DNA from: an uncultured Chloroflexia bacterium
GTDB lineage: Bacteria; Chloroflexota; Dehalococcoidia; SZUA-161
Length of the DNA: 64,000 nucleotides
NCBI GenBank assembly: GCA_963847595.1
Contig: CAWKAJ010000001.1
Location: 601,258-665,257 of the forward strand
Reading direction: 5' to 3'
Part shown: positions 3,487-64,000 of the stretch, piece by piece
Layout: each line of letters starts with the position of its first letter
How positions within the stretch are numbered: the first letter of the stretch is position 1
The notes under the pieces: model-generated
Seen by the model: the letters and a program-made list of their open reading frames with translations, nothing else
The model's database searches: none
Told to the model about the DNA's origin: nothing
Made by a program: the position numbers and the translations under genes

Positions 3487-3840
3487 CTCTAATTACACTC
3501 CTTTGCTACCCTAAGTTCTGCCTGGAAGTCCGTGCTAATGTCGGTGCCGCTCAGCTTGCGCCAGAGCAGACACAACTCAAATTAGTCTATACTTAGTGTC
3601 ATTCTATGTCAAGAGTAAACGTTCAAAGGCGAAGGGCAGGGCGCTTCTGCCAAGGCGGGCTCTCCCAACCTCTTTCAAGGCTCGGTCCCCAGGGAGTCCA
3701 GAGGGATTAAAAAGATATGGAGGATTGCCCTCGGCCGGTTTTTCATTGGTGGAGGATACGGTGTATCTATGTCACCCTGAGTGTAACGAAGGGTCTCTGA
3801 GATTCTTCGCTTTGCTCAGAATGACATCATAACCGGAGTG

Positions 3841-3935
3841 TGCAGAGGGGCAAAGCCCCTTTGCTGGGGGTTTGGGGGTATCCCCCAGTTTCTTAAAGTC
3901 CCCCAAGACTGGGGGATTTAGGGGGTTCAAGAAGA
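3841..3935. repeat. G-rich triple-hairpin repeat, family A copy 1 (aggggCAAAGcccct / tgggggtatccccca / cccccaagactggggg)
   Basis: Near-identical copies occur at 14858-14950, 39231-39330 and 53211-53320. Each contains three consecutive short perfect palindromes. Confidence 0.7.
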
Positions 3936-5591: not shown

Positions 5592-5720
5592 AATGTCATT
5601 CTGAGCTTTAGCGAAGAATCTCGGTATTTAGGCCTGCCTGCTATTTTCGTTCTTCGTGGTGCTGATTGCAGTCAGCATGACGGATTCCTGCTTACGCAGG
5701 AATCCAGTAGGCGCACAGCG
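5592..5720. repeat. composite hairpin repeat (modules tgtcattctgagc..gaagaatctc + tattttcgttcttcgtg + cggattcctgcNNgcaggaatccag)
   Basis: The same three-module arrangement recurs at 22268-22400 and, more diverged, at 42076-42250. The first module also occurs as a back-to-back inverted pair at 3776-3835. Confidence 0.6.
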
Positions 5721-10599: not shown

Positions 10600-12159
10600 A
10601 TGGCCAAATACATCATAGCCCACGATGTAGGCACCAGCGGAAACAAGGCTGTCCTGGTAGATACCGAGGGGCATGTCCACGGCAAATGCTCCGAGCCCTA
10701 CAGGGTCTGCTATCCTAGGCCCGATTGGGCCGAGCAGGAGCCTGAGGACTGGTGGAAGGCAGTTACCCGCACCACCAGGCTCCTTCTGGAAAAGACAGGC
10801 GTATCGCCCGCCGATGTGCTCTGCGTGACACACTGCACACAGATGCTGGGCATCGTGCCTATAGACCCCCAAACGGGACCGCTCCGGCCCGGGATAATCT
10901 GGCTGGACAACAGGGCCTGCAATCAGGCGAATCGCGTCATGAGAAAGTTCATCAGCGCTCGCCTTTTCGCTCTTATCGCCGGTGCCGCCCTTTGCGGCAA
11001 GGACGGCATCCCCAAACTGCTCTGGCTGAAAGAGGAGGAGCCTGATATCTATAGTAAGATGAGCTGTTTCCTCGACGTCAACGGCTACCTTATCTATCGC
11101 AGCACCGGCAACATAGTCATGGAGTGGACCGGCGCCTCGGTGTTCGGGCTGGACCTCAAGAAAAAGCAGTGGCTTCGCAGCATCTTCCGCTACGTGGGGC
11201 TCGACCCCGCAAAGTTTCCGCCCCTGGTGCGGCCTATCGATAAGGTGGGAACGCTGTCCCGGGAAGCAGCCAGCGAATGCGGGCTGCTGCAGGGCACGCC
11301 TGTCATGGCAGGTGCGGGAGACGCCCCCTGCGCTGCGGTGGGCTCGGGCGCAGTCGGCGAAGGCGAGGGGCACGTCTACCTCGGCACATCGGGCTGGGTC
11401 GGCGTGGTCACAAAACGCACGCCCAAAGGCAAGTGCGGCGCAGCCTCGATACACTCGGCAGACCCCGATAAGGCGTTCCTGTTCGCTGAGACCGAGACCG
11501 CAGGGGCTTGCATGCAATGGATGGCCGAGCAGTTATACAGCTCCGAAAAGATAGACCCCAACATCGGCGATGTGTATGCCCTCATGGACGAGAGAGTTGC
11601 CCGCATACCGCCGGGTTCCGGCTATCTGCTCTTCACGCCCTGGATGTACGGAGAGAGGGCGCCCATCAGCGACTGCAACGTGCGCTCCAGCTTTCTGAAC
11701 CTGAGCGCCGAGCATACCCGCGACCACCTGCTCCGCGCCGTCTACGAGGGGATAGCTTACAATATCAGGTGGATCGTGGAAATCATCGAGAAGGAGTACA
11801 AATTCCCCCTTCCTGATCTCAGGGTAATCGGCGGAGGAGCCAAAGCTGCGCCTTTGATGCAGATTCTGTCAGATGTAACTCAACGAAAGGTGGAGACTGT
11901 CCGCTACCCGCAAGAAGCAGGCGCGGTAGGGGCAGCCATGGTGGCGGCGGTCGGCCTCGGTATCTATCCGAATTTCGAGGCACTAAAAAAGGTGGTGAAT
12001 GTGGACAAGGCCTTCGAGCCTGAGGAAAAGAACCGGGGTATCTACGATTCCCTCTACGGCTCTTACCGGGAGGCATACAGCAGCCTTCGCGGCTTCTATA
12101 AAAGGCTCAATGAGCGGAGAGCGATTCAGCAACGTTCCTGCAAGGAGGTGCGTGGATGA
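10600..12159 (+). CDS. FGGY-family carbohydrate kinase (xylulokinase/glycerol-kinase-like)
   Basis: MAKYIIAHDVGTSGNKAVLVD N-terminal phosphate-1 motif and a full-length FGGY architecture. The track ORF starts 27 nt earlier. Confidence 0.88.
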   Translation: MAKYIIAHDVGTSGNKAVLVDTEGHVHGKCSEPYRVCYPRPDWAEQEPEDWWKAVTRTTRLLLEKTGVSPADVLCVTHCTQMLGIVPIDPQTGPLRPGIIWLDNRACNQANRVMRKFISARLFALIAGAALCGKDGIPKLLWLKEEEPDIYSKMSCFLDVNGYLIYRSTGNIVMEWTGASVFGLDLKKKQWLRSIFRYVGLDPAKFPPLVRPIDKVGTLSREAASECGLLQGTPVMAGAGDAPCAAVGSGAVGEGEGHVYLGTSGWVGVVTKRTPKGKCGAASIHSADPDKAFLFAETETAGACMQWMAEQLYSSEKIDPNIGDVYALMDERVARIPPGSGYLLFTPWMYGERAPISDCNVRSSFLNLSAEHTRDHLLRAVYEGIAYNIRWIVEIIEKEYKFPLPDLRVIGGGAKAAPLMQILSDVTQRKVETVRYPQEAGAVGAAMVAAVGLGIYPNFEALKKVVNVDKAFEPEEKNRGIYDSLYGSYREAYSSLRGFYKRLNERRAIQQRSCKEVRG

Positions 12160-13469
12160 ATACTGAAGAAATCCTGAGCTTACCCTCGGCGCTGCCGGAC
12201 GGGGTGGACTACGATGAGTATCTCATCGCCACCTATCTGGCTTCTTTCGCGGCGGTATGGCCCATTCCCGTGCTTGCCGAGGCGCTCGCTATCGAGCAGA
12301 GCACAGGCACCTGGGTAGCAGTTCCGGGCGAGACCTCGGAGGTACGCTGCCAGCACGTAGCCAAGGTGTTGGGCGTATATGAGCTGCCTGACTACGAGTT
12401 CGAGGTGCCCCAGTCTCTGGAAACAAGGAACTGGATTATCCAGATAGCCTATCCTGAAGTTAACATCGGGGAACAGATACCCATGCTGCTGACTACAGTG
12501 GTAGGCAACATCTCGATGGGTGGAAATATAAAGCTGCTGGACATACGTTTCCCCAAGAAATTCGTCGCCGGGTTCAAGGGACCGAAATTCGGCATCGCAG
12601 GCATCAGGAAAATCCTGAAAATCCCCAAGCGGCCCCTGCTCAACAATATGATTAAGCCCTGCACAGGCTATAAGTTAGAGGTTGGCGCCGAGTTGTTCCG
12701 GAAAGCCGCCACGGGCGGCTGTGACATCATAAAGGACGATGAGCTCATCGCCGATGCCTCGTTCAACTCCATAAAAGGGCGCGTCAAGCGCTACATGGAG
12801 ATCGAGAAACAGGTCTACGAGGAGACCGGCGAGCATACCCTGTACACCGTGAACATAACGGACAAGATACCGAAGGTCTTTCAGAACGCCAAACGCGCGG
12901 TGGAGCTGGGCTGCAACGCCTTGATGATAAACTATCTCGCAGTGGGATTGCCCGTAATGCAGGCGCTGGCGGAGGACCCCAAGATAAATGTCCCTATCCT
13001 GGCGCATATGGATGTCGCCGGCGCCATGTATATGTCGCCGCTGCACGGCATGAGCTCCCATCTTGTGCTGGGCAAGCTGCCCCGCCTCGCCGGGGCCGAT
13101 GTCGTGGTCATACCGGCCCCCTACGGCAAAGCGCCGGTCATACCCGATAAGTTCCGCAACGTCGCCAAGAATCTGTCTTTCCCTTTGTACCATCTCAAGC
13201 CGACATTCCCCATGCCCTCCGGCGGAATCACGCCGTCCATGGTGCCGCAGGTAATCGCCGACCTGGGAACCGATATCGTAATCGGCTCGGGAGGCGGCAT
13301 TCACGCCCATCCCGGGGGGCCCATCGCAGGCGGGAAAGCATTCCGTCAGGCCATCGACGCTACACTGCAGGGCATTTCATTGGAGGAGTACGCTAAGGAC
13401 CACCCGGAGCTTGATACTGCACTCAAGGAATGGAGCGACCCGTTCGGCAAAGGGGTCGCCGCCCGGTAA
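12156..13469 (+). CDS. RuBisCO large-subunit-like protein (form IV RLP)
   Basis: The large-subunit core is conserved (GGCDIIKDDE, i.e. K201/D203/E204 equivalents, and SGGGIHAHPGG). The residues equivalent to K177 and R295 are replaced (MIKPCTG, ILAHMDV), arguing against a bona fide carboxylase. The start overlaps the kinase stop by 4 nt. Confidence 0.85.
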   Translation: MNTEEILSLPSALPDGVDYDEYLIATYLASFAAVWPIPVLAEALAIEQSTGTWVAVPGETSEVRCQHVAKVLGVYELPDYEFEVPQSLETRNWIIQIAYPEVNIGEQIPMLLTTVVGNISMGGNIKLLDIRFPKKFVAGFKGPKFGIAGIRKILKIPKRPLLNNMIKPCTGYKLEVGAELFRKAATGGCDIIKDDELIADASFNSIKGRVKRYMEIEKQVYEETGEHTLYTVNITDKIPKVFQNAKRAVELGCNALMINYLAVGLPVMQALAEDPKINVPILAHMDVAGAMYMSPLHGMSSHLVLGKLPRLAGADVVVIPAPYGKAPVIPDKFRNVAKNLSFPLYHLKPTFPMPSGGITPSMVPQVIADLGTDIVIGSGGGIHAHPGGPIAGGKAFRQAIDATLQGISLEEYAKDHPELDTALKEWSDPFGKGVAAR

Positions 13470-14704: not shown

Positions 14705-14738
14705 CTGTCCATCGTCCTGGGATATGCAAGCGTGATTA

Positions 14739-14850
14739 AGGGGGCGACCCGCCTTCGGCGGGTCGCCCCCTTAATATGTCATTGCGAGGAGTCCGCCTCT
14801 GGCGGACGACGTGGCAATCTCCCCGAGCCCGTGTAGCGCCGTGACAGGGA
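14739..14850. repeat. repeat family B copy 1: GC hairpin (ggggcgacccgccTTCGgcgggtcgcccc) + tgtcattgcgag..ccgccNNNNggcgg..gcaatctc hairpin
   Basis: Copies at 16135-16190, 23838-23950 and 58680-58950. The first hairpin may double as the operon terminator after 14704. Confidence 0.7.
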
Positions 14851-14857
14851 GTGCAGA

Positions 14858-14950
14858 GGGACAACAGTCCCTTTGCCGGGGGTTTGGGGGTGTCCCCCAA
14901 TTTCCTTTCCTCCCCCAAGACTGGGGGATACAGGGGGTTCAAGAAGGTTG
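14858..14950. repeat. G-rich triple-hairpin repeat, family A copy 2
   Basis: gtgcagagggacaacagtccctttgccgggggtttgggggtgtcccccaa...cccccaagactgggggatacagggggttcaagaag. Confidence 0.7.
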
Positions 14951-16106: not shown

Positions 16107-16190
16107 AGTAATGTAGGGGCGCACTGCAGTGCGCCCCTATAATATGTCATTGCGAGGAGTCCGCCCCAGGCGGACGACGCGGCAATCTCT
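16107..16190. repeat. repeat modules H4 (gtaggggcGCACTGCAGTGCgcccct) + family B hairpin (copy 3)
   Basis: taatgtaggggcgcactgcagtgcgcccctataatatgtcattgcgaggagtccgccccaggcggacgacgcggcaatctc. Confidence 0.7.
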
Positions 16191-22267: not shown

Positions 22268-22400
22268 AATGTCATTCTGACCCTGAGTGGAGCGAAGGGG
22301 AAGAATCTCAGTTTAGCCCTGCGCTACTATTTTCGTTCTTCGTGATGAACATTGTAATGCTCATGACGGATTCCTGCGCAAGCAGGAATCCAGGTGCCCT
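22268..22400. repeat. composite hairpin repeat (same three-module arrangement as 5592-5720)
   Basis: tgtcattctgaccctgagtggagcgaaggggaagaatctcag ... tattttcgttcttcgtgatg ... cggattcctgcgcaagcaggaatccaggtgccc. Confidence 0.65.
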
Positions 22401-23837: not shown

Positions 23838-24085
23838 AAGAGGGTGACCCGCCGAAGGCGGGTCACCCTTCATATGTCATTGCCGCGTCGTCCTTCCCGT
23901 ACGGGAAGGACGACGCGGCAATCCCCCCGAGCCCGCGTAACGTCGTGACTCTCAGACCGAACCACGACCGACGAAACGAGCAGCGCAACCCAAAGACCAT
24001 TGCCGTGAAATGTAGGGGCGCACTGCTGTGCGCCCTCTCCCAAATCCCCCCTTTTGCAAAGGGGGATACGGGGGGATTTCGCTCT
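23838..24085. repeat. mosaic of hairpin repeat modules (family B, H13 ccacgaccgacgaaacgagcagcg, H4, H5 cccccctTTTGCAAAgggggg)
   Basis: Each module has additional copies elsewhere in the window (14739-14850, 48226-48285, 16107-16133, 58499-58543). Confidence 0.7.
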
Positions 24086-24964: not shown

Positions 24965-25010
24965 CACAAACAAACTAAAAAGGAGGAGTCCTTCCTGGGA
25001 AGGACTCCTC
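24965..25010 (-). terminator. intrinsic terminator of the minus-strand carboxyltransferase operon
   Basis: Perfect 13-bp stem GAGGAGTCCTTCC-cag-GGAAGGACTCCTC is followed on the minus strand by CTTTTTAGTTTGTTTG. It lies just after the stop at 25033. Confidence 0.6.
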
Positions 25011-25032
25011 GCTATGACAAAAGGGTCTGCCT

Positions 25033-39230: not shown

Positions 39231-39330
39231 GGAGTCCAGAGGGGCTTTGCCCCTCTGGTGGGGGCCTGGGGGTATCCCCCAGCCTTAAAAGTCCCCCAAG
39301 ACTGGGGGATTTAGGGGGTTGAAAAGTGTC
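39231..39330. repeat. G-rich triple-hairpin repeat, family A copy 3 (within operon, between dehydrogenase and ferredoxin)
   Basis: ggagtccagaggggctttgcccctctggtgggggcctgggggtatcccccag...cccccaagactgggggatttagggggttgaaaag. Confidence 0.7.
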
Positions 39331-42033: not shown

Positions 42034-42075
42034 CTTCGTACATGTCATTCCTTTGAAAATCGAGGGCTGAGGACT

Positions 42076-42250
42076 CAATGTCATTCTGACCCTGAACGGA
42101 GTGAAGGGGAAGAATCTCAGTACTTAGAGAGTAGGGCGGGTTCCCCAACCCGCCCTCACCAGATGTCGTATCTTCGAAGACACGTTATTTTCATTCTTGG
42201 TGGTGAACGGAGCAACATAGGGTAGGTGCTCCGTCACCTACCCTGGAATG
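42076..42250. repeat. diverged composite hairpin repeat (cf. 5592-5720, 22268-22400) plus GC hairpin agggcgggttCCCCaacccgccct
   Basis: tgtcattctgaccctgaacggagtgaaggggaagaatctcag ... ttattttcattcttggtggtg ... Confidence 0.55.
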
Positions 42251-43756: not shown

Positions 43757-43960
43757 TCGAGCCCCCGGAATAAAACCCTCTCTCCGATAGCCCCTGCGGG
43801 GTCTCATTCTCGAGGCAGGGCAAGGGAACCTCGTTCCTGCACTCGTCGTGGCTCCCGTCACAACGAGTAGGGGCACAGTGCACTGTGCCCTCGCCCAATT
43901 CCCCTTTTGTAAACTTGTCCCTGACTCGTTCAGGGAGGGGGCAAGAGGGATTTAAACCTC
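43757..43960. repeat. mosaic of hairpin modules (H11 ccggaataaaaccctctc..., H4 gtaggggcACAGTGCACTGTgccc, H5 cccctTTTGtAAAc...)
   Basis: H11 has a second copy at 50100-50180. H4 and H5 have copies at 53150-53178, 58892-58918 and 59210-59270. Confidence 0.65.
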
Positions 43961-48039: not shown

Positions 48040-48290
48040 GAGATGAAGGAATAAAATTTCCCTCCCCTCGAGGGAGGGATTAAAGGGAGGGGGATCTAGC
48101 ATCCGTTTCTGGTGAGCCTTGTCCTGAACTTGCCGAAGGATCGTCGAAGGATGAGGGGGAAGAATTCAACCATAGGGACACAGGGTGCCGTGCCCTTCAC
48201 TTTGCCTTTCGAATTCGTTCATAGCCCCGAAACCCACGACGATAGACGAAACAAGCAGCGTAACCGGACGACGAACCACTCCCTCATCTG
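48040..48290. repeat. mosaic hairpin-repeat region (ccctcccCTCGAGggaggg, cctgtcctga..gtcgaagga, ccacgacgatagacgaaacaagcagcg)
   Basis: Modules match 58551-58566, 59300-59345 and 23945-24000 respectively. Confidence 0.55.
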
Positions 48291-48844: not shown

Positions 48845-49834
48845 CTAATCATGTATTTCTTCCAGAACTAGAGCATTCTTTTGGGGATTGACTTTGTATT
48901 TGATGAGCCTCACCGTTTTTTCTTCAATCGCTTTTCTTTTCCTCCAATATTCGAGCACTCTTTCATCAAATCCAAATCCTACTAGGATGCTCTGAACCAT
49001 TTCAGAATCTCCATCGGCGAGTTTTCTGACTATCCAGTTTTCATATTTTATGATTTGATTAAGGTCTTCTTCGGAAATTTTGCCCGCTTTTAGCTCCATG
49101 CATGTGAACTTATGCAGAATATCAACAGAGTCAATTGTAGTTACATGTGTAAGGAATATATCCATTACCTTGTTAAACGAGGTGGGCACATAATTCAAAT
49201 AGTCTCTATAATCACCAATGAGTTCTTTCAATTTACCGTTTGAAAAGGCCCGCATAAACCAGGCATTAAGACATCCTTCGTATCTTAAGTGACCACTTTT
49301 ATCGGATTCAAGACTCAGAGGTAAGGGTACCTTTTTCGTCAGCAAATAAGGTTGTGGTATGATATCTGGCTTTGCGAAAATAGGATTATTCCTAAGTAAT
49401 AGTCGGATTAACTCTTTTCCCTCATCAGTGGTGATCGGATTGTGTGATTTTTTCGTAACGGTTCCCAAATCAAAGGTCCATATCTTGCCTTTATCTTTTA
49501 AATCCAAAATATCAGCCATCGCAATGGGGGCCGAAAATCTTCTGATTGTTGGTTCAAAGCATACTCTGAACGGGTAAAGTTGGTCTGGATCATCCCAAAC
49601 AGGTGTTGTATCATAGAATGAGTCAGTGGTAATCCTCCACAATCCATAGATGCCTCTATTCTTTACATAGAAGAATACAAAGTCCCCAATCTTGATTCCG
49701 GCAAATCCAGAAATAACTTCTGAATTCGTTTGCTCCGATTTGGCTGAGCCGTGAAATTCAATACCACCATAGACTCCTTTCCTTAAGCAAACGCCAAAGT
49801 TGCTTTCCCCAGCGAGAAAAATGTGATACCCCAT
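48845..49834 (-). CDS. PUA/EVE-like N-terminal domain protein with possible PD-(D/E)xK nuclease C-terminal domain
   Basis: N-terminus MGYHIFLAGESNFGVCLRKGVYGG...IKIGDFVFFYVKNRGIYGLWRITTD resembles EVE/PUA-like domains. The C-terminus contains D...VDILHKFTCMELKAGK, which is (D)-x-ELK-like. The gene lies in an AT-rich islet. The domain calls are by eye only. Confidence 0.5.
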   Translation of the reverse strand: MGYHIFLAGESNFGVCLRKGVYGGIEFHGSAKSEQTNSEVISGFAGIKIGDFVFFYVKNRGIYGLWRITTDSFYDTTPVWDDPDQLYPFRVCFEPTIRRFSAPIAMADILDLKDKGKIWTFDLGTVTKKSHNPITTDEGKELIRLLLRNNPIFAKPDIIPQPYLLTKKVPLPLSLESDKSGHLRYEGCLNAWFMRAFSNGKLKELIGDYRDYLNYVPTSFNKVMDIFLTHVTTIDSVDILHKFTCMELKAGKISEEDLNQIIKYENWIVRKLADGDSEMVQSILVGFGFDERVLEYWRKRKAIEEKTVRLIKYKVNPQKNALVLEEIHD

Positions 49835-50099
49835 AATTAATTCTCTCCTTTTCCGCTAGACTTCAGCAATATAGTGAGCTAATGAAAACCATATCTACAC
49901 TATCATTCGCAAGCGGAATCTTTCTCGCCTCACTGGGGTTATGTCATAACCGATGGCTCTTCTCTTTTCTTCCCCGCATCCCAAACCTCCCCTTCAACTA
50001 AGCATCGGCTCCTTTGCATAGCACATGTTTATTAAGTCTTGTTTTCGCAGACATTATACAGCATGCGTCGAGTTTCAAAAAGAAGTCGTTCCCGAGCGG

Positions 50100-50180
50100 C
50101 CGGAATAAGACCCTCTCGCTAGTAAAATGATAGACCCGACGGGGTATCGTTCTCGGGTCAGGGCGAGAAGGTCTCTCCAG
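50100..50180. repeat. repeat module H11 copy (ccggaataagaccctctcgctagtaaaatgatagacccgacggggtatcgttctcgggtcagggcgagaag)
   Basis: Aligns with 43757-43830. Confidence 0.55.
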
Positions 50181-50313
50181 GGAGACATCTCACTTCTTCG
50201 AGATACATAAACGGCCCCAGCGGTGTGTACCCTCGCCGGATAGCTTCATTACGCCGACGCATTAGCACAGATATGCCGAAGTTGCCAATCCGGTGGGCGT
50301 GTAGTAGAATTGT

Positions 50314-53141: not shown

Positions 53142-53149
53142 AGGTATCC

Positions 53150-53380
53150 CTGTAGGGGCACAGTGCACTGTGCCCTGTAAGTCTCCCAAGACTGGAATTA
53201 ATGGATTGTTACTGAAAGGGGAGTGCAGAGGGGAAAGTCCCCTCTGCCAGGGGTTTGGGGGTGTCCCCCAACCCCAAAATCCCCCAAGACTGGGGGACAC
53301 AGGGGGTTGAAAAGGCCTTATCGAAGACCTAGTCGATTAACAATTAGGGGAGTCCGGAGGGGAAAAGCCCTTCTGGCGGA
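53150..53380. repeat. H4 hairpin (gtaggggcACAGTGCACTGTgccct) + family A triple hairpin copy 4 + partial extra copy, within operon
   Basis: ggggagtgcagaggggaaagtcccctctgccaggggtttgggggtgtcccccaa...cccccaagactgggggacacagggggttgaaaagg ... ggagtccggaggggaaaagcccttctggcgg. Confidence 0.7.
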
Positions 53381-53388
53381 GGAATACG

Positions 53389-57141: not shown

Positions 57142-58473
57142 ATGGCTAAGCTACCGCTGGAAGGCGTAAGGGTTGTGGGCATGACCCAGATGTGGGCCGG
57201 CCCCATCGTCGAGATGCACCTGGCCGACTGGGGTGCCGAGATAATCAAGGTCGAGTCCATTCACTATCTCGCCGTCGGCACCAGGGGCCCCGCTCCCAGG
57301 CATCCCAAGTTCGCTGTTGATTTCGTCAAGGGCGGCTATGCCGCCTATCTCAAAGAGGGTTACGACGAGACCAAATGCAGGCCCTGGAATCTGAGCTGCA
57401 TGTTCAATGTGCATGGCCGCAACAAATATTCCTGCACCGTGGACTCCGTCAAGCCCGAGGGCAAGGAAATAATCAAGCGCCTGATACAGGTGAGCGACGT
57501 TTTCATCGAGAACAGCCAGCCCGCCGTCATGGAGGACTTCGGCCTCACCTACGACGTCATCAGCGCCTGGAACCCGAATATCATCATGCTCTCCATGTCC
57601 GGCTTCGGCCAGACCGGCCCCTACAAGTACTTTCGCTCTCTCGGCGCCCATCAGGATGCCTTCCTGGGGCATACCTATCTCAGGGGCTATGCGGACCGGG
57701 ACGTGACGGCAAACTCGGCAATCTACCATTGCGACGAAGCTTCAGGAACAATCGGTGCCTTCATGGTTGTTATGGCGCTGCACCAGCGCAACAAGACAGG
57801 CAAGGGCATGTTCATCGACATGGCGCAGACCGAGGCCACCATGATCCAACTGGGTGAGGCCATCATGGACTACACCATGAACAGTCGCATCACCGAGAGG
57901 ACCGGGAACCGCGACCTCTACGGCGGCATCCAGGGCTGCTACCGCTGCCGCGGCGAGGACAGATGGGTAACCATCGCCATCCGCACCGATGAGGAATGGC
58001 AGGGCTTCTGCCGTGCCCTGGGCAATCCCGGGTGGACCAAGGACGACAGGTTCGCCGATAGCCTGAGCAGGTGGCGTAATCAGGAAGAGTTGGACAAACA
58101 CATCGGCGAATGGACCGGCCGGCATGAAGCCTTCAAGGTCATGAACACCCTGCAGAAAGAAGGCGTAGCTGCCGGCCCGGTAGAGCACCCGGACGATGCC
58201 TACAACGACCCGCAGATGAAAGCGCGGGGCTTTTTCGAAACGGTAACTCAGGCTGAATGCGGGACACACAGATACCCCGGCCTGGCATTCAGGATGTCCA
58301 AGGCGCCCAACCATTTCCGGCTTCCTCCCGTCCGTCTGGGCGAGCACAACGAATACGTCTATAAGAAGCTTCTCGGCTTCTCCGACGCAGAGTATGCTCG
58401 CCTGGAAAAAGAGGGGCACATAGGGATGGACCTGGTGCCCGATATCGTAATCGGCAAATACAAGCCCGAATAA
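57142..58473 (+). CDS. family III CoA-transferase (CaiB/BaiF-like), 443 aa with insertion
   Basis: MAKLPLEGVRVVGMTQMWAGPIVEMHLADWGAEIIKVES. Starts 2 nt after the previous stop. Confidence 0.88.
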   Translation: MAKLPLEGVRVVGMTQMWAGPIVEMHLADWGAEIIKVESIHYLAVGTRGPAPRHPKFAVDFVKGGYAAYLKEGYDETKCRPWNLSCMFNVHGRNKYSCTVDSVKPEGKEIIKRLIQVSDVFIENSQPAVMEDFGLTYDVISAWNPNIIMLSMSGFGQTGPYKYFRSLGAHQDAFLGHTYLRGYADRDVTANSAIYHCDEASGTIGAFMVVMALHQRNKTGKGMFIDMAQTEATMIQLGEAIMDYTMNSRITERTGNRDLYGGIQGCYRCRGEDRWVTIAIRTDEEWQGFCRALGNPGWTKDDRFADSLSRWRNQEELDKHIGEWTGRHEAFKVMNTLQKEGVAAGPVEHPDDAYNDPQMKARGFFETVTQAECGTHRYPGLAFRMSKAPNHFRLPPVRLGEHNEYVYKKLLGFSDAEYARLEKEGHIGMDLVPDIVIGKYKPE

Positions 58474-59546
58474 TGTAGGGGCGACCGGCTGGTCGCCCTC
58501 TCCCAAATCCCCCCTTTTGCAAAGGGGGCAAGGGGGATTTTAGCCTCCTCTCGCCCCTGGAGGGAGAGATAAGAGTGAGAGGGATAATCCGTTCGCCCTG
58601 AATCCTTCTGTGGTAGGACAGGCTCCCCAGCCTGTCCCTGACCTGATCAGGGAGCACGAATCCAGGTGCCCTTCTCTTGTCATTGCGAGTCCTTCTCTGG
58701 AAGGACGAAGCAATCTCACCGCGCCTGTCTTGAGCCCCTGACAACGTACAACATGCCATTCCTGCGCAAGCAGGAATCCAGGTGCCCCCATATGTCATTG
58801 CGAGGAGTCCTTCAAGGAAGGACGACGCGGCAATCTCACCGGCCCCGCGTGACGCCCTAACGGGTAGGTTGGAGCACCCGCTCCAACCAGGTAGGGGCAC
58901 AGTGCACTGTGCCCTTCTGTATGTCATTGCGAGTCCGCCTCGGGCGGACGAAGCAATCTCCTCGTCATCATTCCGTAGGGGCAGACCCATGTGTCTGCCC
59001 GAATCTGAGAATAGGGTCGGTGCTCCGCAACCGACCCTTTCGTAGGGGCAATTCATGAATTGCCCCTTTAATGTCATTCCTGCGCAAGCAGGAATCCAGG
59101 CGCCCCTAATTTTCCCTCCCCTGGAGAGAGAGAAAAGCCTGTCCTGAGCCCCTGACAACGTACAACATATCATTCCTGCCCTGAGCAGGAATCCAGGCGC
59201 GCCACGAACCAATCCCCCCTTTTGCAAACTTGTCCCTAACTCGTTCAGGGAGGGGGCAAGGGGGATTTTAGCCTCCTCTCGCCCCTGGAGGGAGGGGGAT
59301 AATCCGTTCGCCCTTAGCCCTGTCCTGAGCCCCGTCGAAGGACTGTCGAAGGGCTATCCTTAATTGGGTAGCTTGGAGCACCCGCTCCAACCTCGTAGGG
59401 GCACAAGGCATTGTGCCCAAAAACGTAGGGGCGAGGGCCCTCGCCCCGGGATCCGAAGAGCGACTTCTTTACTGCTGATCGGGGTATCGCAGCATGTTAC
59501 TGATCTCCCGTTAAAATAACCTTTCGCATTAAATCCGACTAGTTCG
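58474..59546. repeat. about 1.07 kb ORF-free array of more than 20 short hairpin-repeat modules (H1, H3, H4, H5, H6, H7 families)
   Basis: Examples: gtaggggcGACCGGCTGGTCgccctc, tgtcattgcgag..gcaatctc (x3), cattcctgcgcaagcaggaatccagg (x3), gtaggggcACAGTGCACTGTgccc, gtaggggcAGACCCATGTGTCTgccc, gtaggggcAATTCATGAATTgcccct, ggtaggttggagcacccgctccaacc (x2), cccccctTTTGCAAA...gggggg (x2). The track's 312-aa ORF here is repeat-derived. Confidence 0.85.
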
Positions 59547-60998
59547 CTACGCTGCGCTGCAATATTCGCTATATCTTACCAGGTGAGCAAGTATTTTAGC
59601 TGATTCTTCCGGGTCAGGGTAGAGATTTAGATGGCTCTGCTTCAATGTCAGAGGAACCGTGCCCTGAGTTTCGAAACGCGCTGCTCCAACGGTGAAAAGG
59701 ACGGGCTTACGGTGTTTTGCCATAAGCTCAATAGTCGTCTTTATGTTCTCAAGCTCAGGTTCCTCCATTTGCATTCCCACCTCTTGAGTAGCCTTTTTCA
59801 TCAACGGTGGTGCCCACGTAGCGTAGCCGGAGGTCATCGCGACACCGCCGATAACCAATATGGCGTCGAAATTCTCATCCTCTATCATTGGCCAGAGAGC
59901 CTGGTAGCTGACGAAGTCCCCGGCAGGATCGACTGGGTTTCCTCCGGACCACCTTCGCGACATCATAGACTCCAATTTCTCCATAGTAGCTGCTGACAGA
60001 GGGGGCAGTTCTAAACCCTCTTTCCTCAAGGCGTCTGCGGCGATGACTGCCATCCCACCGCTCATAGACAGCACTCCTACCCTTCTCCCCCGGGGCAGCG
60101 ACTGACCCAGCAAAGCCACAGCGACATCTATCATTTCGTGAAGCTTCTCCACCCGGATCACACCGCACTGCTTGAACGCAGAATCGAGCGTTGCATCCGA
60201 TCCTGCCAGAGCAGAGGAGTGAGACCGCGCTGCCCTGCTCCCGACATCCGTACGCCCCACCTTCATAATGACCATGGGCTTCTTTTTTGTTATTTCCCTT
60301 GCCAGTTCAAGGAAACGCTTGCCTTCTCTGAAGCCTTCTACGTAACCCAGGACAACCTCGGTTTTCTCATCCTGAGCCAGATACTCCAGATAGTCTTCGA
60401 AGCGCAGGTCGCCCTCGTTTCCGCTGCTGATAAACTTGCTAAACCCGACTCCCATCTGCAGCCCGTAATCGAGTATTGCCTGGCCCGAGTTCCCGCTTTG
60501 AGAGATGAGCGCCACATGACCTCTCTCGATAGGGGGCATGAAAGGCACAGTGCAGAATTCTGCGTACGGGTTACAAAACCCCAGGCAGTTCGGACCTATG
60601 AAGCGTATACCGCCTCGCCGGGCGATTTCAACCGCCTCCCGTTGTATTCTTGCGCCTTCTTCACCTGTCTCGGCAAGACCGCCGGAGATAATGACAGCGC
60701 TCTTGACTCCCTTTCTAACGCAGTCTTCCATAGCAGCGGGGACATCCTGAAACGGGACCGTTATCACAGCAAAATCCACTGGCCCGGGCACTTCAACCAC
60801 GCTCATATAAGCTTTCATCCCCATCACTTCGGCTTCCCTGTTGTTGACCGCGTAAATCTCTCGCCCCTGCTTATGGCTCAGTACGCGGCTTAGCACGTTG
60901 TATCCCCACTTACCGAAGTTGTTAGAAGCCCCGATGACCGCCACTGCCCTAGGATTGAACAAATTATCCAACTGCTCTTTTAGACTCATGTTGCTCAT
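59547..60998 (-). CDS. NDP-forming acyl-CoA synthetase alpha-domain protein (CoA-binding + succinyl-CoA-ligase-like domains)
   Basis: NPRAVAVIGASNNFGKWGYNVLSRVL...RFIGPNCLGF pattern of ADP-forming acetyl-CoA synthetase and related enzymes. The start is set at MSNMSLKEQ (RBS GGGAGAGG). The track ORF begins at 61052. Confidence 0.85.
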   Translation of the reverse strand: MSNMSLKEQLDNLFNPRAVAVIGASNNFGKWGYNVLSRVLSHKQGREIYAVNNREAEVMGMKAYMSVVEVPGPVDFAVITVPFQDVPAAMEDCVRKGVKSAVIISGGLAETGEEGARIQREAVEIARRGGIRFIGPNCLGFCNPYAEFCTVPFMPPIERGHVALISQSGNSGQAILDYGLQMGVGFSKFISSGNEGDLRFEDYLEYLAQDEKTEVVLGYVEGFREGKRFLELAREITKKKPMVIMKVGRTDVGSRAARSHSSALAGSDATLDSAFKQCGVIRVEKLHEMIDVAVALLGQSLPRGRRVGVLSMSGGMAVIAADALRKEGLELPPLSAATMEKLESMMSRRWSGGNPVDPAGDFVSYQALWPMIEDENFDAILVIGGVAMTSGYATWAPPLMKKATQEVGMQMEEPELENIKTTIELMAKHRKPVLFTVGAARFETQGTVPLTLKQSHLNLYPDPEESAKILAHLVRYSEYCSAA

Positions 60999-61095
60999 GC
61001 TACCTCTCCCACCCTGGGTTGACGTTTCCCCCGAAAACAGTAGCACCGCCATTTAGAGTCCTCCGCTATAATAAAACGAAAGAGGAGGGCTCATC

Positions 61096-61362
61096 ATGGT
61101 ACGCAAGAGGTACACCGAGGAACAGATCATCGCCGTGCTCAGGGAGGCAGAGGCCGGAGCTAAAGTAACCGATCTCTGCCGTAAATATGGGATGAGCGAT
61201 GCCACCTATTACAACTGGAAAGCCAGGTATGCCGGACTGACCGTCAGTGAACTGAAAAGGTTGAAAGCCTTAGAAGAGGAAAACCGGCGTCTCAAGCAAA
61301 TCGTGGGCGAGCAAGCACTGGACATCAGAGCGCTCAAGGATCTGCTATCAAAAAACTTCTAA
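61096..61362 (+). CDS. IS3-family transposase OrfA (HTH)
   Basis: MVRKRYTEEQIIAVLREAEAGAKVTDLCRKYGMSDATYYNWKARYAG...LKRLKALEEENRRLKQIV (leucine zipper). Slippery heptamer A AAA AAC at 61350-61356 in the OrfA frame. Confidence 0.9.
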   Translation: MVRKRYTEEQIIAVLREAEAGAKVTDLCRKYGMSDATYYNWKARYAGLTVSELKRLKALEEENRRLKQIVGEQALDIRALKDLLSKNF

Positions 61363-62183
61363 AGCCCGGGGCCAAACGCCTGGCAGTTTCCCATGCCAGG
61401 GAGAGTCTTGGGCTGAGCGAAAGGAAAGCCTGCCTGCTGGTCAATATTTCGGCTTCGGTATATCGCTATAGGCCGAAATCGGATAGTGATGTTGCCCTGC
61501 GTCAGCGTTTACGGGAGCTGGCAGGACAGAGAAAACGGTTTGGCAGTCCCCGGCTCCACATTTTGCTGAGAAGGGAGGGGCTGGTGATTAATCACAAGCG
61601 GACAGAGAGGATCTATCATGAAGAGGGATTGGCGCTGAGGAGAAAGAGGCGTAGGAAAGGTGCTGCCGGGTTGAGGGTAATCATGCCATCACCGCAGAGG
61701 CCAAACCAGCGCTGGTCCATGGATTTTGTTACTGACAGCATCGTCACCGGGCGGCGTTTTCGCGCCCTTGCCATCGTGGATGACTACTCCCGGGAATGTC
61801 CCGTCATCGAGGTGGACACTTCACTGGGTGGTGCCAGAGTGGTGAGTGTGCTGGAAAGGCTAGCTGAAACGAGGGGATTGCCTAACGTAATTACCACGGA
61901 CAATGGGCCGGAATTCGCAGGGCGGGCACTCGATGAATGGGCATACTGTAAGGGCGTGAAGCTGAACTTCATCCGGCCGGGAAAGCCAATTGAGAATGCC
62001 TATGCCGAGAGCTTCATCGGCAGGCTCAGGGACGAGTGTTTGAACGAGAACTGGTTTATGAACCTGAAGCATGCCCGGGACATCATCGAAGACTGGAGGA
62101 GGGATTACAACGAGGTCAGGCCACACAGCTCATTGCACGGTAGGGCTCCCATGGAGTATGCTGAAACAGCGGCTGGGCTCTAA
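61353..62183 (+). CDS. IS3-family transposase OrfB (integrase/DDE rve core), expressed as an OrfAB fusion by -1 frameshift
   Basis: The -1 frame reads KLLKPGAKRLAVSHARESLGLSERKACLLVNISASVYRYRPK... It continues into the listed ORF (61563-62183), which has DDE-integrase hallmarks (WSMDFVTD, ITTDNGPEF, ENAYAESFIGRLRDECLN). No internal stops are seen. Confidence 0.85.
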   Translation, partial: KLLKPGAKRLAVSHARESLGLSERKACLLVNISASVYRYRPKSDSDVALRQRLRELAGQRKRFGSPRLHILLRREGLVINHKRTERIYHEEGLALRRKRRRKGAAGLRVIMPSPQRPNQRWSMDFVTDSIVTGRRFRALAIVDDYSRECPVIEVDTSLGGARVVSVLERLAETRGLPNVITTDNGPEFAGRALDEWAYCKGVKLNFIRPGKPIENAYAESFIGRLRDECLNENWFMNLKHARDIIEDWRRDYNEVRPHSSLHGRAPMEYAETAAGL

Positions 62184-62212
62184 TAGCCGGTGATACTAAT
62201 ACCGGGGGAAGG

Positions 62213-63106
62213 TCATACTTCCTGATAACTATCTAGATAATCGATGAATTGTATCTCATATTTTGGTGGTGGGTCATTTTGTCTCAATCTAGTGGTGGTA
62301 TGTAGAAGAGAAAGTACACTAAAATCATTGGTATTTAAGGAGCAACCGATTATCCGTAATATATCACATTTCAGGCAAGATCTTGCTTTCCCCCAGATAG
62401 CGTTAAACGGGTAATAGTCATTCCTTTTGATTACACCTGGAGGAACCCAGAGTATATGATCTCTATCGTCGTTCATATTGATAAGATTTTCATTAATTCT
62501 TACTGGATTTGTATTTTCCCAATTAAAAGAACCGTGTAATTTACATAGGGCTGGAATACCTGTATTATTCGTAATTTCACCGTTTTCTGGTATTACTTCA
62601 AACGGGATATTTAGGCTCGCGTAATTCTCAAACATAGCCTTTTCTATAAAGTTGTCGTAGTTTAAAGTAAGAATTGCACACAATTCTTCGTTAAAATCCG
62701 GTAACGAATACATATCAAGCAGTGCAGTTATTAGGTTTGGAGATTGTTTTTCATTCCTTAGCCCATTTTTAATCCTATTATTTATCGATTTTCTAAAGTA
62801 ATTTCGTAATTTGTTAGTACGCTCCTTGTCTTTAAAAGTGCCGGAGGATTCATAAAGGGTTATTATCTCTTCAATATCAACGTTTCGGTGTATTTTTCGT
62901 TCATCTAACCATGTAATATTGCTCAAGTCTCTCAATGAAACATCTTCTTCATTTTTACAAGCTAATAAGACATCTTCAGCTATATCGGCCATTAATATTC
63001 CATCATTTGTTGGATCGAGATGTTTAATGACAGCATGACTCGCACCAGCGCCCAAGAGATATACAACTTTCTTCTTTTCGTCAGGCATCTTTTCTCCAAA
63101 AAACAA
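62213..63106 (-). CDS. SIR2_2-family (ThsA/DSR-like sirtuin) domain protein, AT-rich
   Basis: VVYLLGAGASHA (G-A-G-x-S), ILTLNYDNFIE (xNYD..hE) and LCKLHGS (K-h-H-G) match the three signature motifs of defence-type SIR2 domains. The stop codon (TGA, 62215..62213) is formed by the first bases of the IS3 right terminus. Confidence 0.75.
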   Translation of the reverse strand: MFFGEKMPDEKKKVVYLLGAGASHAVIKHLDPTNDGILMADIAEDVLLACKNEEDVSLRDLSNITWLDERKIHRNVDIEEIITLYESSGTFKDKERTNKLRNYFRKSINNRIKNGLRNEKQSPNLITALLDMYSLPDFNEELCAILTLNYDNFIEKAMFENYASLNIPFEVIPENGEITNNTGIPALCKLHGSFNWENTNPVRINENLINMNDDRDHILWVPPGVIKRNDYYPFNAIWGKARSCLKCDILRIIGCSLNTNDFSVLSLLHTTTRLRQNDPPPKYEIQFIDYLDSYQEV

Positions 63107-64000
63107 TGCTTTCTCGGGACGGACTTCTCATATAGTCTCTCATTTGTTGAGAGCTATTTCCCCTATATCTTACAGCCCATATATTTTCCGGACTTAAGCC
63201 CACTTGTAATCCAATTTCAGATAATATTTCATCGACAAGGATGTCAACTCCTGCAAATCGAACATTACTAATGACCATAGCCACTTTCCCGCCATTTCTT
63301 AGGCACCTGTGTATCTCAGAAAGAGATAAATACATATCTTCAAAATAACCTTCTAACATCTTGATCACTTGCGGATTATTAGCACCATTCCTTTTGACTT
63401 GGGCGATTAAGGACTCAAGTGTATCTGGTATTTGATAGCCGATAGCTTCATATTTTTCCCTTGCCTCGACATGTGACCGGATCGTTTCATAACGTATCCT
63501 TTTAAGTTGATCGTTATCTGATATAAAATCGAACATCATCTCTAGAGAATATATTCTAGTATAATCATGCCGGTTGGGGTATGGAGGAGAAGTGATAACA
63601 GCATCATATTTTCTTTGAGTAGGAAGTTTTCTCGCATCGCCTATCTTGGCCAATGAACTTACATTTTTGCCTTTCTCGTATTTGAATTCAAGTACATCTT
63701 GAATCATGGACTCTACTTTGTTTAAAAACTCACCCATTATCTCATTTGGGTTCACCTGACGATTTATTATGCGAAGAAACCCCCCATCCTTCGAGGTATT
63801 GCTTGCAGACTCAATAATACTTAGGAATCCAAGGTTGAAAAAAGCCCTAATCTTAGGATTTTCAATATTGTCTTCGATTCTAGATTTTATCGACAACAAT
63901 TCTTTTGCTACGTCTGTGCTAAAAGCTTTTTTAACTATAGGGATATTAGGTAGAACTCTATTATCATTACTTATTACATCTTTTGTTTTTAGCACTTCAA
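63081..64000 (-). CDS. DNA amino-methyltransferase (N4-cytosine/N6-adenine type, SPPY motif IV); N-terminus lies beyond the window end
   Basis: DAVITSPPYPNRHDY is a classic motif IV. CLRNGGKVAMVIS is downstream. The reading frame is still open at 64000, so the ORF is 5'-truncated by the window. Its 3' end overlaps the SIR2 gene start by 26 nt. Confidence 0.7.
   Translation of the reverse strand, partial: EVLKTKDVISNDNRVLPNIPIVKKAFSTDVAKELLSIKSRIEDNIENPKIRAFFNLGFLSIIESASNTSKDGGFLRIINRQVNPNEIMGEFLNKVESMIQDVLEFKYEKGKNVSSLAKIGDARKLPTQRKYDAVITSPPYPNRHDYTRIYSLEMMFDFISDNDQLKRIRYETIRSHVEAREKYEAIGYQIPDTLESLIAQVKRNGANNPQVIKMLEGYFEDMYLSLSEIHRCLRNGGKVAMVISNVRFAGVDILVDEILSEIGLQVGLSPENIWAVRYRGNSSQQMRDYMRSPSRESIVFWRKDA

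Follow-up and report, generated by a model that had tools for sequence, protein, structure and literature searches.

A mosaic array of co-oriented, probably REP-type palindromes beside a CoA-transferase gene of an uncultured Chloroflexota bacterium

Repetitive extragenic palindromic (REP) elements that carry a GTAG tag have stems of 5-13 bp and very short loops and frequently occur in clusters, and REPs prefer the gaps between convergent or co-directional open reading frames (ORFs) (PMC3733652). Published REPs are found predominantly as head-to-head or tail-to-tail dimers and rarely head-to-tail, with singletons and clusters also described, and most GTAG and CGTC families are split into subfamilies with alternative complementary stem residues (PMC3733652). 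The CGTC-1 family, which includes Neisseria dRS3, has a tag that is often TGTC, an 8-bp stem starting with AT, a loop of 4-5 nt and a CCA tail (PMC3733652); dRS3 itself reads ATTCCC-N8-GGGAAT (PMC1797815). Bacterial interspersed mosaic elements (BIMEs) are defined by REPs that are regularly spaced and alternate in orientation (PMC2817692). Here we describe a repeat array in a stretch of 64,000 nt, hereafter the window, from an uncultured Chloroflexia bacterium (GCA_963847595.1, contig CAWKAJ010000001.1, positions 601,258 to 665,257). The array occupies window positions 58475-59447, between two convergent genes that face it with their 3' ends, and we put a probability of about 0.75 on its being a mosaic cluster of REP-type elements, DNA palindromes that are short and non-autonomous and keep a conserved unpaired tag.

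Exact matching delimits 28 modules in the array. These comprise ten GTAG- or ATAG-tagged palindromes, three H1 units, three H2 units plus one H2 right half, and about ten accessory palindromic units (P, Q, R, S, X and Y), several of them in two copies (Table 1). Three blocks are duplicated within the array in changed order, as found with blastn-short. A preliminary description of this DNA had read 58474-59546 as an ORF-free stretch of about 1 kb that holds more than 20 packed palindromic modules. The packing is borne out, with 18 perfect hairpins (stem of at least 7 bp, loop of at most 8 nt) in 58400-59600, compared to 19-43 such hairpins per 64-kb window, or ~0.5 per kb, in ten second-order Markov shuffles of the whole window. 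Folded as single-stranded DNA, 58475-59450 reaches -225 kcal/mol versus -166 +/- 8 in 20 dinucleotide shuffles (z = -7.2). The extent needed correction, as 59448-59546 is unique sequence, and the stretch is not ORF-free: mechanical ORFs of up to 312 aa run across the array, with no Pfam match among them. No tRNA or tmRNA was found. A CRISPR array was considered and rejected, as it had been in the preliminary description: the palindromic units are heterogeneous, the array has no tandem period, and no cas genes were found among the ORFs scanned beside it (48.8-64 kb, the rest of the window being left unscanned).

Most of the hairpins belong to what the preliminary description called family H4, which is GTAG plus a GC-rich palindrome and hence corresponds to the definition of a GTAG-tagged REP. 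An unpaired GTAG stands beside a palindrome in ten units of the array (ATAG in unit 6) and in 15 units of the window. Their stems of 8-12 bp and loops of 0-8 nt are inside the published ranges, and the units are repeated, extragenic and clustered; all 15 copies in the window are intergenic, with those outside the array at 16113, 24012, 42133, 43867 and 53152. The earlier view of the families as conserved flanks around variable self-complementary cores stands. Of the six H4 cores quoted for it, one, GCACTGCAGTGC, sits at 16113, outside the array, and the last parses as GTAGGGGC-GAGGGCCCTC-GCCCC. Nor is every variant perfectly self-complementary, since AGACCCATGTGTCT contains one C.T mismatch and GACCGGCTGGTC a non-complementary 4-nt centre. 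The likeness to the GTAG REPs of Escherichia coli and Pseudomonas and to Stenotrophomonas SMAG covers the 5' unpaired GTAG, the GC-rich palindrome of 8-12 bp with minimal loop, the many extragenic clustered copies, the complementary stem subfamilies, and a GTAGGGGC head that in other genomes is found at genes for REP-associated tyrosine transposases (RAYTs). In contrast to those families, all copies here are co-oriented head-to-tail with no inverted pairs, ten units within 1 kb have eight distinct cores, the GTAGGGGC head extends over roughly 20 phyla, and neither the window nor relative loci L241-L320 revealed a RAYT of this lineage.

The H2 and H1 units carry the other type of tag. H2b (TGTC-ATTCCTGC-GCAA-GCAGGAAT-CCA) agrees with the CGTC-1 description in every feature, the tags of H2a (TGCC) and H2c (TATC) are degenerate, and one relative, L246, contains exactly ATTCCCGCGCAGGCGGGAAT, the dRS3 consensus. 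H1 has the general form TGTC-ATTGC-GA(GGA)-7 bp stem-loop-stem-GAA/GACGCG-GCAAT-CTC; it begins with the TGTC tag and AT, but its stem has two tiers, with an internal loop between the outer helix of 5 bp and the variable inner helix of 7 bp, and its tail is CTC. The GTAG units and H2 are members, and H1 is a variant, of two tagged REP superfamilies. With CGTC-1 repeats such as Neisseria dRS3 and Rickettsia RPE-6, H2 shares tag, stem, loop and CCA tail as well as the lack of a known transposase; the architecture of H1 differs from them, and CGTC clusters have been described as rare outside Neisseria and Wolbachia.

As an array, the locus has its closest analogues in Neisseria intergenic mosaic elements (NIMEs) and E. 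coli BIMEs. Like NIMEs, it is a long intergenic array at a variable region in which dRS3-type hairpins alternate with other small repeats, and syntenic NIME arrays vary in repeat number and length between strains (PMC1797815), as they do here. The fit is partial. NIMEs are arrays in which dRS3 inverted repeats flank RS repeats of 50-150 bp; here, distances of 100-320 nt, in which other repeats stand, separate the three to four dRS3-like units, but these are outnumbered by the GTAG REPs, the spacers are themselves palindromic, and no integrating phage or recombinase was seen. With BIMEs the array has in common REP clusters with recurring linker motifs in 3' intergenic regions, while its uniform orientation, irregular spacing and mixture of two superfamilies depart from the BIME definition. 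A search of literature full text with H1 and H4 sequence strings matched only primers and unrelated items. To the literature examined, the array adds an architecture that is both mixed and co-oriented, a GTAGGGGC foot and an H1 that are very widely spread and reach into phage genomes, the insertion of X into loops without duplication, and evidence of arm-to-arm copying.

The central point of the preliminary description was that the stems covary in a compensatory manner, from which it concluded that a fold in RNA or cruciform DNA is under selection. We analyzed 52 distinct GTAGGGGC-N12-GCCC copies chosen by their flanks only. All six variable pairs covary, with 137 double-change cells versus 45.5 +/- 6 in shuffles, and the covariation score is 0.60 versus 0.16 in shuffles and 0.06-0.16 for slid partners. 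The covariation is genuine and not random, but it is already described for REP subfamilies: since alternative complementary stems have been published for GTAG and CGTC REPs (PMC3733652), the observation repeats what is known of an established type of element and does not support a reading of the array as something new. The step from covariation to fold selection is not supported either, in view of the palindromic centres, the absence of wobble asymmetry, the apparent copying of arms and the occurrence of broken chimeras. The two central pairs, which would form a loop, are still 75-79% paired; thus, most 12-nt cores are complete or one-off palindromes and not stems with a free loop. These two pairs also account for 33 of the 45 mismatches, and mismatches of the G.T/T.G type (11) are not in excess of A.C/C.A (13). 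The data suggest that units arise as full or near-full palindromes, after which the centre decays and the outer 8 bp stay paired.

Two processes can account for such a pattern. One GTAG sequence type is identical at 43867, 53152 and 58891, which shows amplification of whole units. A pattern of copying between arms is visible in orthologous positions: L241 has ATTGCTTCGTCCGCC..GGCGGACGAAGCAAT where L244 and L250, within the same flanks, have the usual imperfect ATTGCGAGTCCGCC..GGCGGACGAAGCAAT, and a copy that shows the reverse direction (..GGTGGACTCGCAAT) is also present. In the window itself, the "perfected" H1 at 23879-23922 is a 22-bp perfect palindrome, and 24983-25010 contains an H1 version built from the left arm. 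Such multi-base changes of one arm in a single step are what intramolecular quasipalindrome template switching yields, a type of mutation that is established in E. coli (PMC7202029). Chimeric H1 units that join a GTCCGCC left arm to a GAAGGAC right arm, and in which the stem is broken, occur in L243 and L253. Amplification of palindromic types and arm-to-arm copying can together explain the covariation, and selection on an RNA fold is therefore not required.

Turnover of the array was followed in a metagenome scan with the CoA-transferase, which returned 80 loci, ~25 of them at 85-97% protein identity. Collinearity at ~90% nucleotide identity with more than 20 relatives runs through the operon and ends at 58472, the CoA-transferase stop codon. 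The hairpin zone that follows measures 0 nt in 11 of 23 relatives (including L247-L249, L252 and L254). Three relatives have a zone of 89-209 nt, and in the other nine it extends over 279-828 nt and consists of 4-13 hairpins of the same module types in other number and order. At a second site, 53142-53388, the gap is 10-16 nt and repeat-free in L249, L257, L258 and L260, and the window and four other relatives have a gap of 150-247 nt that contains modules; the GTAG REP at 53152 is found in the window only. Compared to L242, the window holds ~500 nt of extra sequence with a GTAGGGGC head at both bounds. The comparison of the repeat inventory across relatives, which the preliminary description had proposed, thus reveals arrays of 0 to 828 nt at the same site, and an array that is present, absent or differently composed at ~90% nucleotide identity is unlike a conserved structured RNA.

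One module, the mini-hairpin X (CTTG-TCCCTGA-CTCGT-TCAGGGA, 23 nt), can be delimited as an insertion. Two different host modules contain it, and in both it follows GCAA. The H2 loop of L246 has the arrangement CATTCCTGCGCAA/X/GCAGGAAT, and in the P loop (window 59210-59268 and 43895-43953, with X at 59229 and 43918) it is TTTTGCAAA/X/GGGGGCAAG. The empty hosts, H2 at 58757-58787 and P at 58505-58540, have the same boundaries within 1 nt, and comparison of empty and filled sites revealed no target duplication at X. Hybrids of left P with right H2 and of left H2 with right P both occur, indicating recombination at X. Insertion 3' of a fixed tetranucleotide without duplication is a signature of single-strand transposition of the IS200/IS605 type. 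X resembles IS608 and ISDra2 of that family in its hairpin-defined ends, its position adjacent to GCAA and the missing target duplication, and differs in being a single 23-nt hairpin without left and right ends.

To place the units more widely, one genome per species was scanned for GTAGGGGCNCANTGCANTGNGCCC, which gave at least 118 loci in roughly 20 phyla. Among 80 listed loci are members of Chloroflexota, Cyanobacteria, Bacteroidota, Planctomycetota, Clostridia and Omnitrophota, together with Calditrichota, Acidobacteriota, Nitrospinota, Spirochaetota, Patescibacteria and others. As the core is palindromic, the pattern fixes only ~12 independent positions, and the truly shared part is the foot GTAGGGGC(R)...(Y)GCCCC. 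In these at least 118 loci, 83 of 124 further GTAGGGGC sites, which were not selected by the pattern, precede hairpins with very diverse cores; the GTAG REPs are the only module type common to the array and these named genome loci. A scan of viral contigs for the flanks of H1 gave at least 120 stretches with at least 161 copies, in which 121 distinct inner sequences exceed their shuffles in self-complementarity. H1 (TGTCATTGCGAG..GCAATCTC) is common in related phage-like contigs of IMG/VR (L002-L121), one of which, L013, has 6 copies in 6.5 kb. One ORF family is common to 23 of the viral loci, and its sequence suggests a capsid-like protein.

The preliminary description had named a RAYT as the protein to seek, and this was the right target. 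Using E. coli RayT and then a small hidden Markov model, we found a Y1 transposase gene touching a REP copy in 6 of the 118 loci, among the matches listed. Three of these six proteins match Pfam Y1_Tnp, and with the NCBIfam model REP_Tyr_transpos L165 scores 82.5 bits, passing the cutoff of 80, while L236 remains below it at 65.3 bits. By our own estimate, less than one RAYT would be expected by chance in ~950 genes if a genome holds one or few. Besides flanking copies, RAYT-type genes that accompany GTAGGGGC REPs carry REP copies in frame within the coding sequence just after the HUH motif, in either orientation (L165, ~1780-2590; L202; L162, 5511-6150; L192; L236, ~2560-3110), which are read as peptides such as GTLQCAPT, RAHCNVP and RGAMHCAPT.

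Combined, these data are consistent with the following mechanism. Judging from the family to which they belong, the hairpins would form in single-stranded DNA, and a RAYT (HUH/Y1) transposase with its gene elsewhere in the genome would cut the GTAG units and join them in trans. Strain comparison, together with the empty and filled sites, suggests that new units land beside or inside the loops of older hairpins, and a gap that tolerates insertions would grow into an array. Recombination between common modules, as the sequences show, then duplicates, deletes and reshuffles blocks. The stems would covary as distinct palindromic types are amplified as whole units, a process also seen here, and as one arm is recopied from the other, for which the pattern is evident and intra-hairpin template switching is the probable mechanism. 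The hairpin would in this way serve recognition and propagation of the element itself, and a host RNA function need not be assumed. Putative effects on the flanking genes, such as 3'-end protection, termination or an influence on translation of the gene whose stop codon abuts REP 1, are plausible.

Several observations weigh against the array being a REP cluster with this origin. Neither the window nor relative loci L241-L320 yielded a RAYT or other Y1 gene, so that the enzyme of this lineage is a presumed one; no transposase is known for CGTC/TGTC units; and among the at least 120 viral loci no Y1 gene was found, nor any transposase recurring beside H1, only phage structural genes recurring there. 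H1 lies outside the published stem, loop and tail ranges of the CGTC families, for which reason we handle it as a variant and not as a member of CGTC-1 to CGTC-4. The tagged units are all arranged head-to-tail, with none of the inverted pairs of a REPIN-like arrangement. The empty and filled sites of X are without direction, and precise excision would look like insertion. Mis-joins at repeats in metagenome assemblies could explain some of the differences between relatives, although the repeat-free relatives and the independent contig L001 argue against assembly noise as a general explanation. Finally, the hairpins, when transcribed, may have a function for the host.

That last point leads to the strongest of the other explanations, which we nevertheless consider unlikely, namely that the host keeps the array as RNA, with 3'-UTR hairpins that protect the CoA-transferase mRNA against 3' exonucleases, stop read-through from one convergent gene into the other or tune how the upstream gene is translated, in which case the covariation of the stems would reflect selection on RNA folding. 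One argument for it is orientation. The plus strand carries every tagged unit of the array as well as the window's 15 GTAG-tagged perfect hairpins, relatives' arrays are almost all in the sense direction of the upstream gene, and within the lineage tags in co-directional gene contexts mostly follow that gene (++ 19 versus -- 6 for GTAG, 10 versus 2 for TGTC). The bias is gone in other genomes (28 versus 20), however, and is reversed for TGTC in viral contigs (40 versus 65); the uniform head-to-tail order could reflect strand-specific insertion as well as use in transcripts. The first REP begins 1 nt past the TAA stop of the CoA-transferase, as read from the sequence, and the same spacing occurs at 16113 and in L241 and L242. 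In these four cases a stop codon, one base and then GTAGGGGC follow each other (TAA-T-GTAG or TAG-A-GTAG; window 58471-58478 and 16110-16117). The H2 loop GCAA is a GNRA-type tetraloop, on the minus strand TACGTTTTTG, a terminator-like T-run, comes after REP 10, and RNA roles have been proposed for REPs in published work. Still, intrinsic terminators and sigma-70 promoters are not above shuffles (terminator-like sites, 2 versus 1.4 +/- 1.3), complementarity runs through the loop positions, and G.T is not above A.C among the mismatches. Rfam gave no match at the gathering score in the whole window, and at E <= 1 the array matched only eukaryotic miRNA and snoRNA models by chance (E 0.24-1, far below gathering). 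The array is, moreover, absent or wholly different where the gene is kept at 94-97% amino-acid identity.

A slightly less probable idea is that the array owes its existence to promoting exchange of the DNA beside it. H2 is built like dRS3, synteny stops exactly at the array, an IS3 element and a low-GC segment lie past the downstream gene, and syntenic NIME arrays likewise differ in length and in how many repeats they contain. None of the 80 related loci has the window's downstream gene, and 23 loci (the window and 22 relatives) have 20 different downstream contexts, with or without an array. As relatives that lack the array also differ downstream, the synteny breakpoint is independent of the repeats. 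There is also no adjacent recombinase gene, the dRS3-like units are a minority (3-4 of 28 modules), and exchange would be compatible with a REP cluster and not an alternative to it.

Two further explanations are very improbable. Fragments of classical insertion sequences, or miniature inverted-repeat transposable elements with terminal inverted repeats and target-site duplications, could be suspected from the defined ends and many recurrences of the modules and from the IS3-family element 1.5 kb away, but the modules are not of this kind: they are single hairpins of 23-45 nt with no paired terminal repeats around a core, X as the one delimitable insertion lacks a target duplication, and blastn-short with 58474-59546 as query gave no match in the IS3 region nor elsewhere beyond the array. 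An assembly artefact with short repeats collapsed or mis-joined, which would fit the very different arrays of metagenome contigs and the break of contig L001 inside the second module, is countered by that independent short-read contig, which matches exactly across REP 1 and half-way into P, where it breaks in the loop, so that the start of the array is no artefact of one assembly, and by the similar arrays that many independent metagenome assemblies have at this site (those of L246 and L251 agree) and module types that recur at twelve other intergenic sites.

These twelve sites of the window, identified by blastn-short and reading of the intergenic regions, hold the same or closely related modules. 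All eleven sites named in the preliminary description were recovered, although the copies at 3776-3835, 42076-42250, 48040-48290 and 50100-50180 are related and not identical. Coordinates of the array modules, of the flanking genes and of the scattered sites are collected in Table 1.

Table 1. Flanking genes, modules of the array and scattered module sites in the window.
Feature	Position	Strand	Remark
Upstream gene, family III CoA-transferase	57142..58473	+	Pfam CoA_transf_3, E = 2e-93
GTAG REP 1: GTAG-GGGCGACC-GGCT-GGTCGCCC	58475..58498	+	
Module P, empty form: AAATCCCCCCTTTTGCAAAGGGGGCAAGGGGGATTT	58505..58540	+	nested hairpins; P also 3' of a GTAG REP at 24031-24065
Modules Q1 (CCTCCTCTCGCCCCTGGAGGGAG) and R1 (GATAATCCGTTCGCCCT)	58544..58599	+	both again at 59272-59314
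Fused trio, parts 1-2: GTAG REP 2 (GGTAG-GACAGGCT-CCCC-AGCCTGTCC) and mini-hairpin X (TCCCTGA-CCTGA-TCAGGGA)	within 58612..58671	+	
Fused trio, part 3: right half of H2 unit (GCACGAATCCAGGTGCCC)	within 58612..58671	+	
H1a: TGTC-ATTGC-GA-GTCCTTC-TCTG-GAAGGAC-GAA-GCAAT-CTC	58678..58717	+	two-tier
S1, then H2a: TGCC-ATTCCTGC-GCAA-GCAGGAAT-CCAGG	58723..58787	+	degenerate tag; CGTC-1/dRS3-like REP
H1b: TGTC-ATTGC-GAGGA-GTCCTTC-AAG-GAAGGAC-GACGCG-GCAAT-CTC	58793..58837	+	
GTAG REP 3 (GGTAG-GTTGGAGC-ACCC-GCTCCAACC) and GTAG REP 4 (GTAG-GGGCACAGTGCACTGTGCCC)	58863..58914	+	REP 4 identical at 43867 and 53152
H1c: TGTC-ATTGC-GA-GTCCGCC-TCG-GGCGGAC-GAA-GCAAT-CTC	58922..58960	+	
GTAG REP 5 (core AGACCCATGTGTCT)	within 58975..59067	+	one C.T mismatch
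ATAG REP 6 (AGGGTCGGT-GCTCCGCA-ACCGACCCT)	within 58975..59067	+	
GTAG REP 7 (AGGGGCAATTCA/TGAATTGCCCCT)	within 58975..59067	+	12-bp perfect palindrome
H2b: TGTC-ATTCCTGC-GCAA-GCAGGAAT-CCAGG	59072..59105	+	canonical CGTC-1-type unit
Q2, S2 and H2c (TATC-ATTCCTGC-CCTGA-GCAGGAAT-CCAGG)	59112..59203	+	shuffled duplicate of 58723-58787
Module P, filled form	59210..59268	+	split after TTTTGCAAA by 23-nt mini-hairpin X (CTTGTCCCTAACTCGTTCAGGGA)
Q3, R2 and module Y (TAGCCCT...GTCGAAGG...GTCGAAGGGCTA)	59272..59356	+	
GTAG REPs 8-10: GGTAG-CTTGGAGC..; GTAG-GGGCACAA-GGCA-TTGTGCCC; GTAG-GGGCGAGGGCCCTCGCCCC	59367..59447	+	
Downstream gene, ADP-forming acyl-CoA synthetase-like	59547..61052	-	convergent; Pfam Succ_CoA_lig and CoA_binding_2
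TGTCATTCTGAG-type hairpin (minus strand) and three-hairpin module W	3770..3930	.	scattered site
TGTCATTCTGAGC hairpin, linker, H2-like unit GGATTCCTGC-TTAC-GCAGGAATCC	5592..5720	+	scattered site
19-bp GC hairpin, H1 copy (14776-14820), module W	14735..14950	+	scattered site
GTAG REP (13-bp palindrome TAGGGGCGCACTG/CAGTGCGCCCCTA) and H1 copy	16113..16190	+	scattered site; REP right after TAA
TGTCATTCTGA hairpin, linker, H2 unit	22268..22400	+	scattered site
13-bp GC hairpin, "perfected" H1 (23879-23922), GTAG REP (24012-24035), module P	23841..24070	+	scattered site
H1-type unit	24983..25023	-	scattered site; 3' arm the complement of the 5' arm, 13-bp perfect stem
TGTCATTCC and TGTCATTCTGA hairpins, GTAG and ATAG REPs	42040..42250	+	scattered site
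Module V, GTAG REP identical to REP 4, filled P (P and X)	43757..43955	+	scattered site
GTAG REP identical to REP 4, and module W	53152..53320	+	scattered site

Outside the array, a three-hairpin composite, W (GCAGAGGGG..CCCCTCTGC, TTGGGGGtgtCCCCCAA, TCCCCCAagacTGGGGGA), is found in four intergenic regions (3845-3930, 14862-14945, 39236-39325 and 53225-53320) and differs among relatives. A conserved module of ~95 nt (..CCGGAATAAGACCCTCTCGCCAATAGCCCCGGCGGGGTCTCATTTTCGGGTCAGGGCAAG..) occurs at 43757-43860 and 50090-50190 of the window and in L243 (~12083-12237), L248 and L250, with 53 invariant columns over five copies; Rfam found nothing at E <= 0.1 in its region, 43.5-50.4 kb. The segment 48300-50000 has 42% GC and encodes an EVE-domain protein (48845-49834, minus strand) flanked by repeat-bearing intergenic regions. 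The IS3-family element at 61096-62183, composed of an HTH_Tnp_1 ORF and an rve integrase ORF, is followed at 62000-64000 by a segment of 38% GC that encodes a SIR2_2-domain protein; this DNA may have been acquired, or the gene may be of a defence type.

REP clusters have long been known from bacterial genomes but are understood only in part, and the present case, which reveals no new kind of system, is useful mainly as material. As an example, it offers both tagged superfamilies in one co-oriented array, a 23-nt hairpin with clean sites in both the empty and the filled state, orthologous pairs with an imperfect hairpin that appears "perfected" from its own other arm, and one tag-plus-stem foot spread over roughly 20 phyla and found beside RAYT genes. 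It also carries a warning, in that stem covariation in repeated palindromes is no proof of a functional RNA. We regard it as possible, if doubtful, that H1 (TGTCATTGCGAG-variable hairpin-CGNN-GCAATCTC) and the loop-inserting X represent undescribed branches of the REP world. If so, H1 would be a very widespread family of many bacteria and a phage clade, with a hypervariable apical stem whose complementarity is renewed by arm-to-arm template switching and not by selection on the fold, and X would move in a Y1-like manner, entering other hairpins' loops 3' of GCAA without duplication. The missing mobilising activity for CGTC-type repeats would then be searchable by co-occurrence. The array also offers a concrete route to the enzyme behind the CGTC/TGTC repeats.

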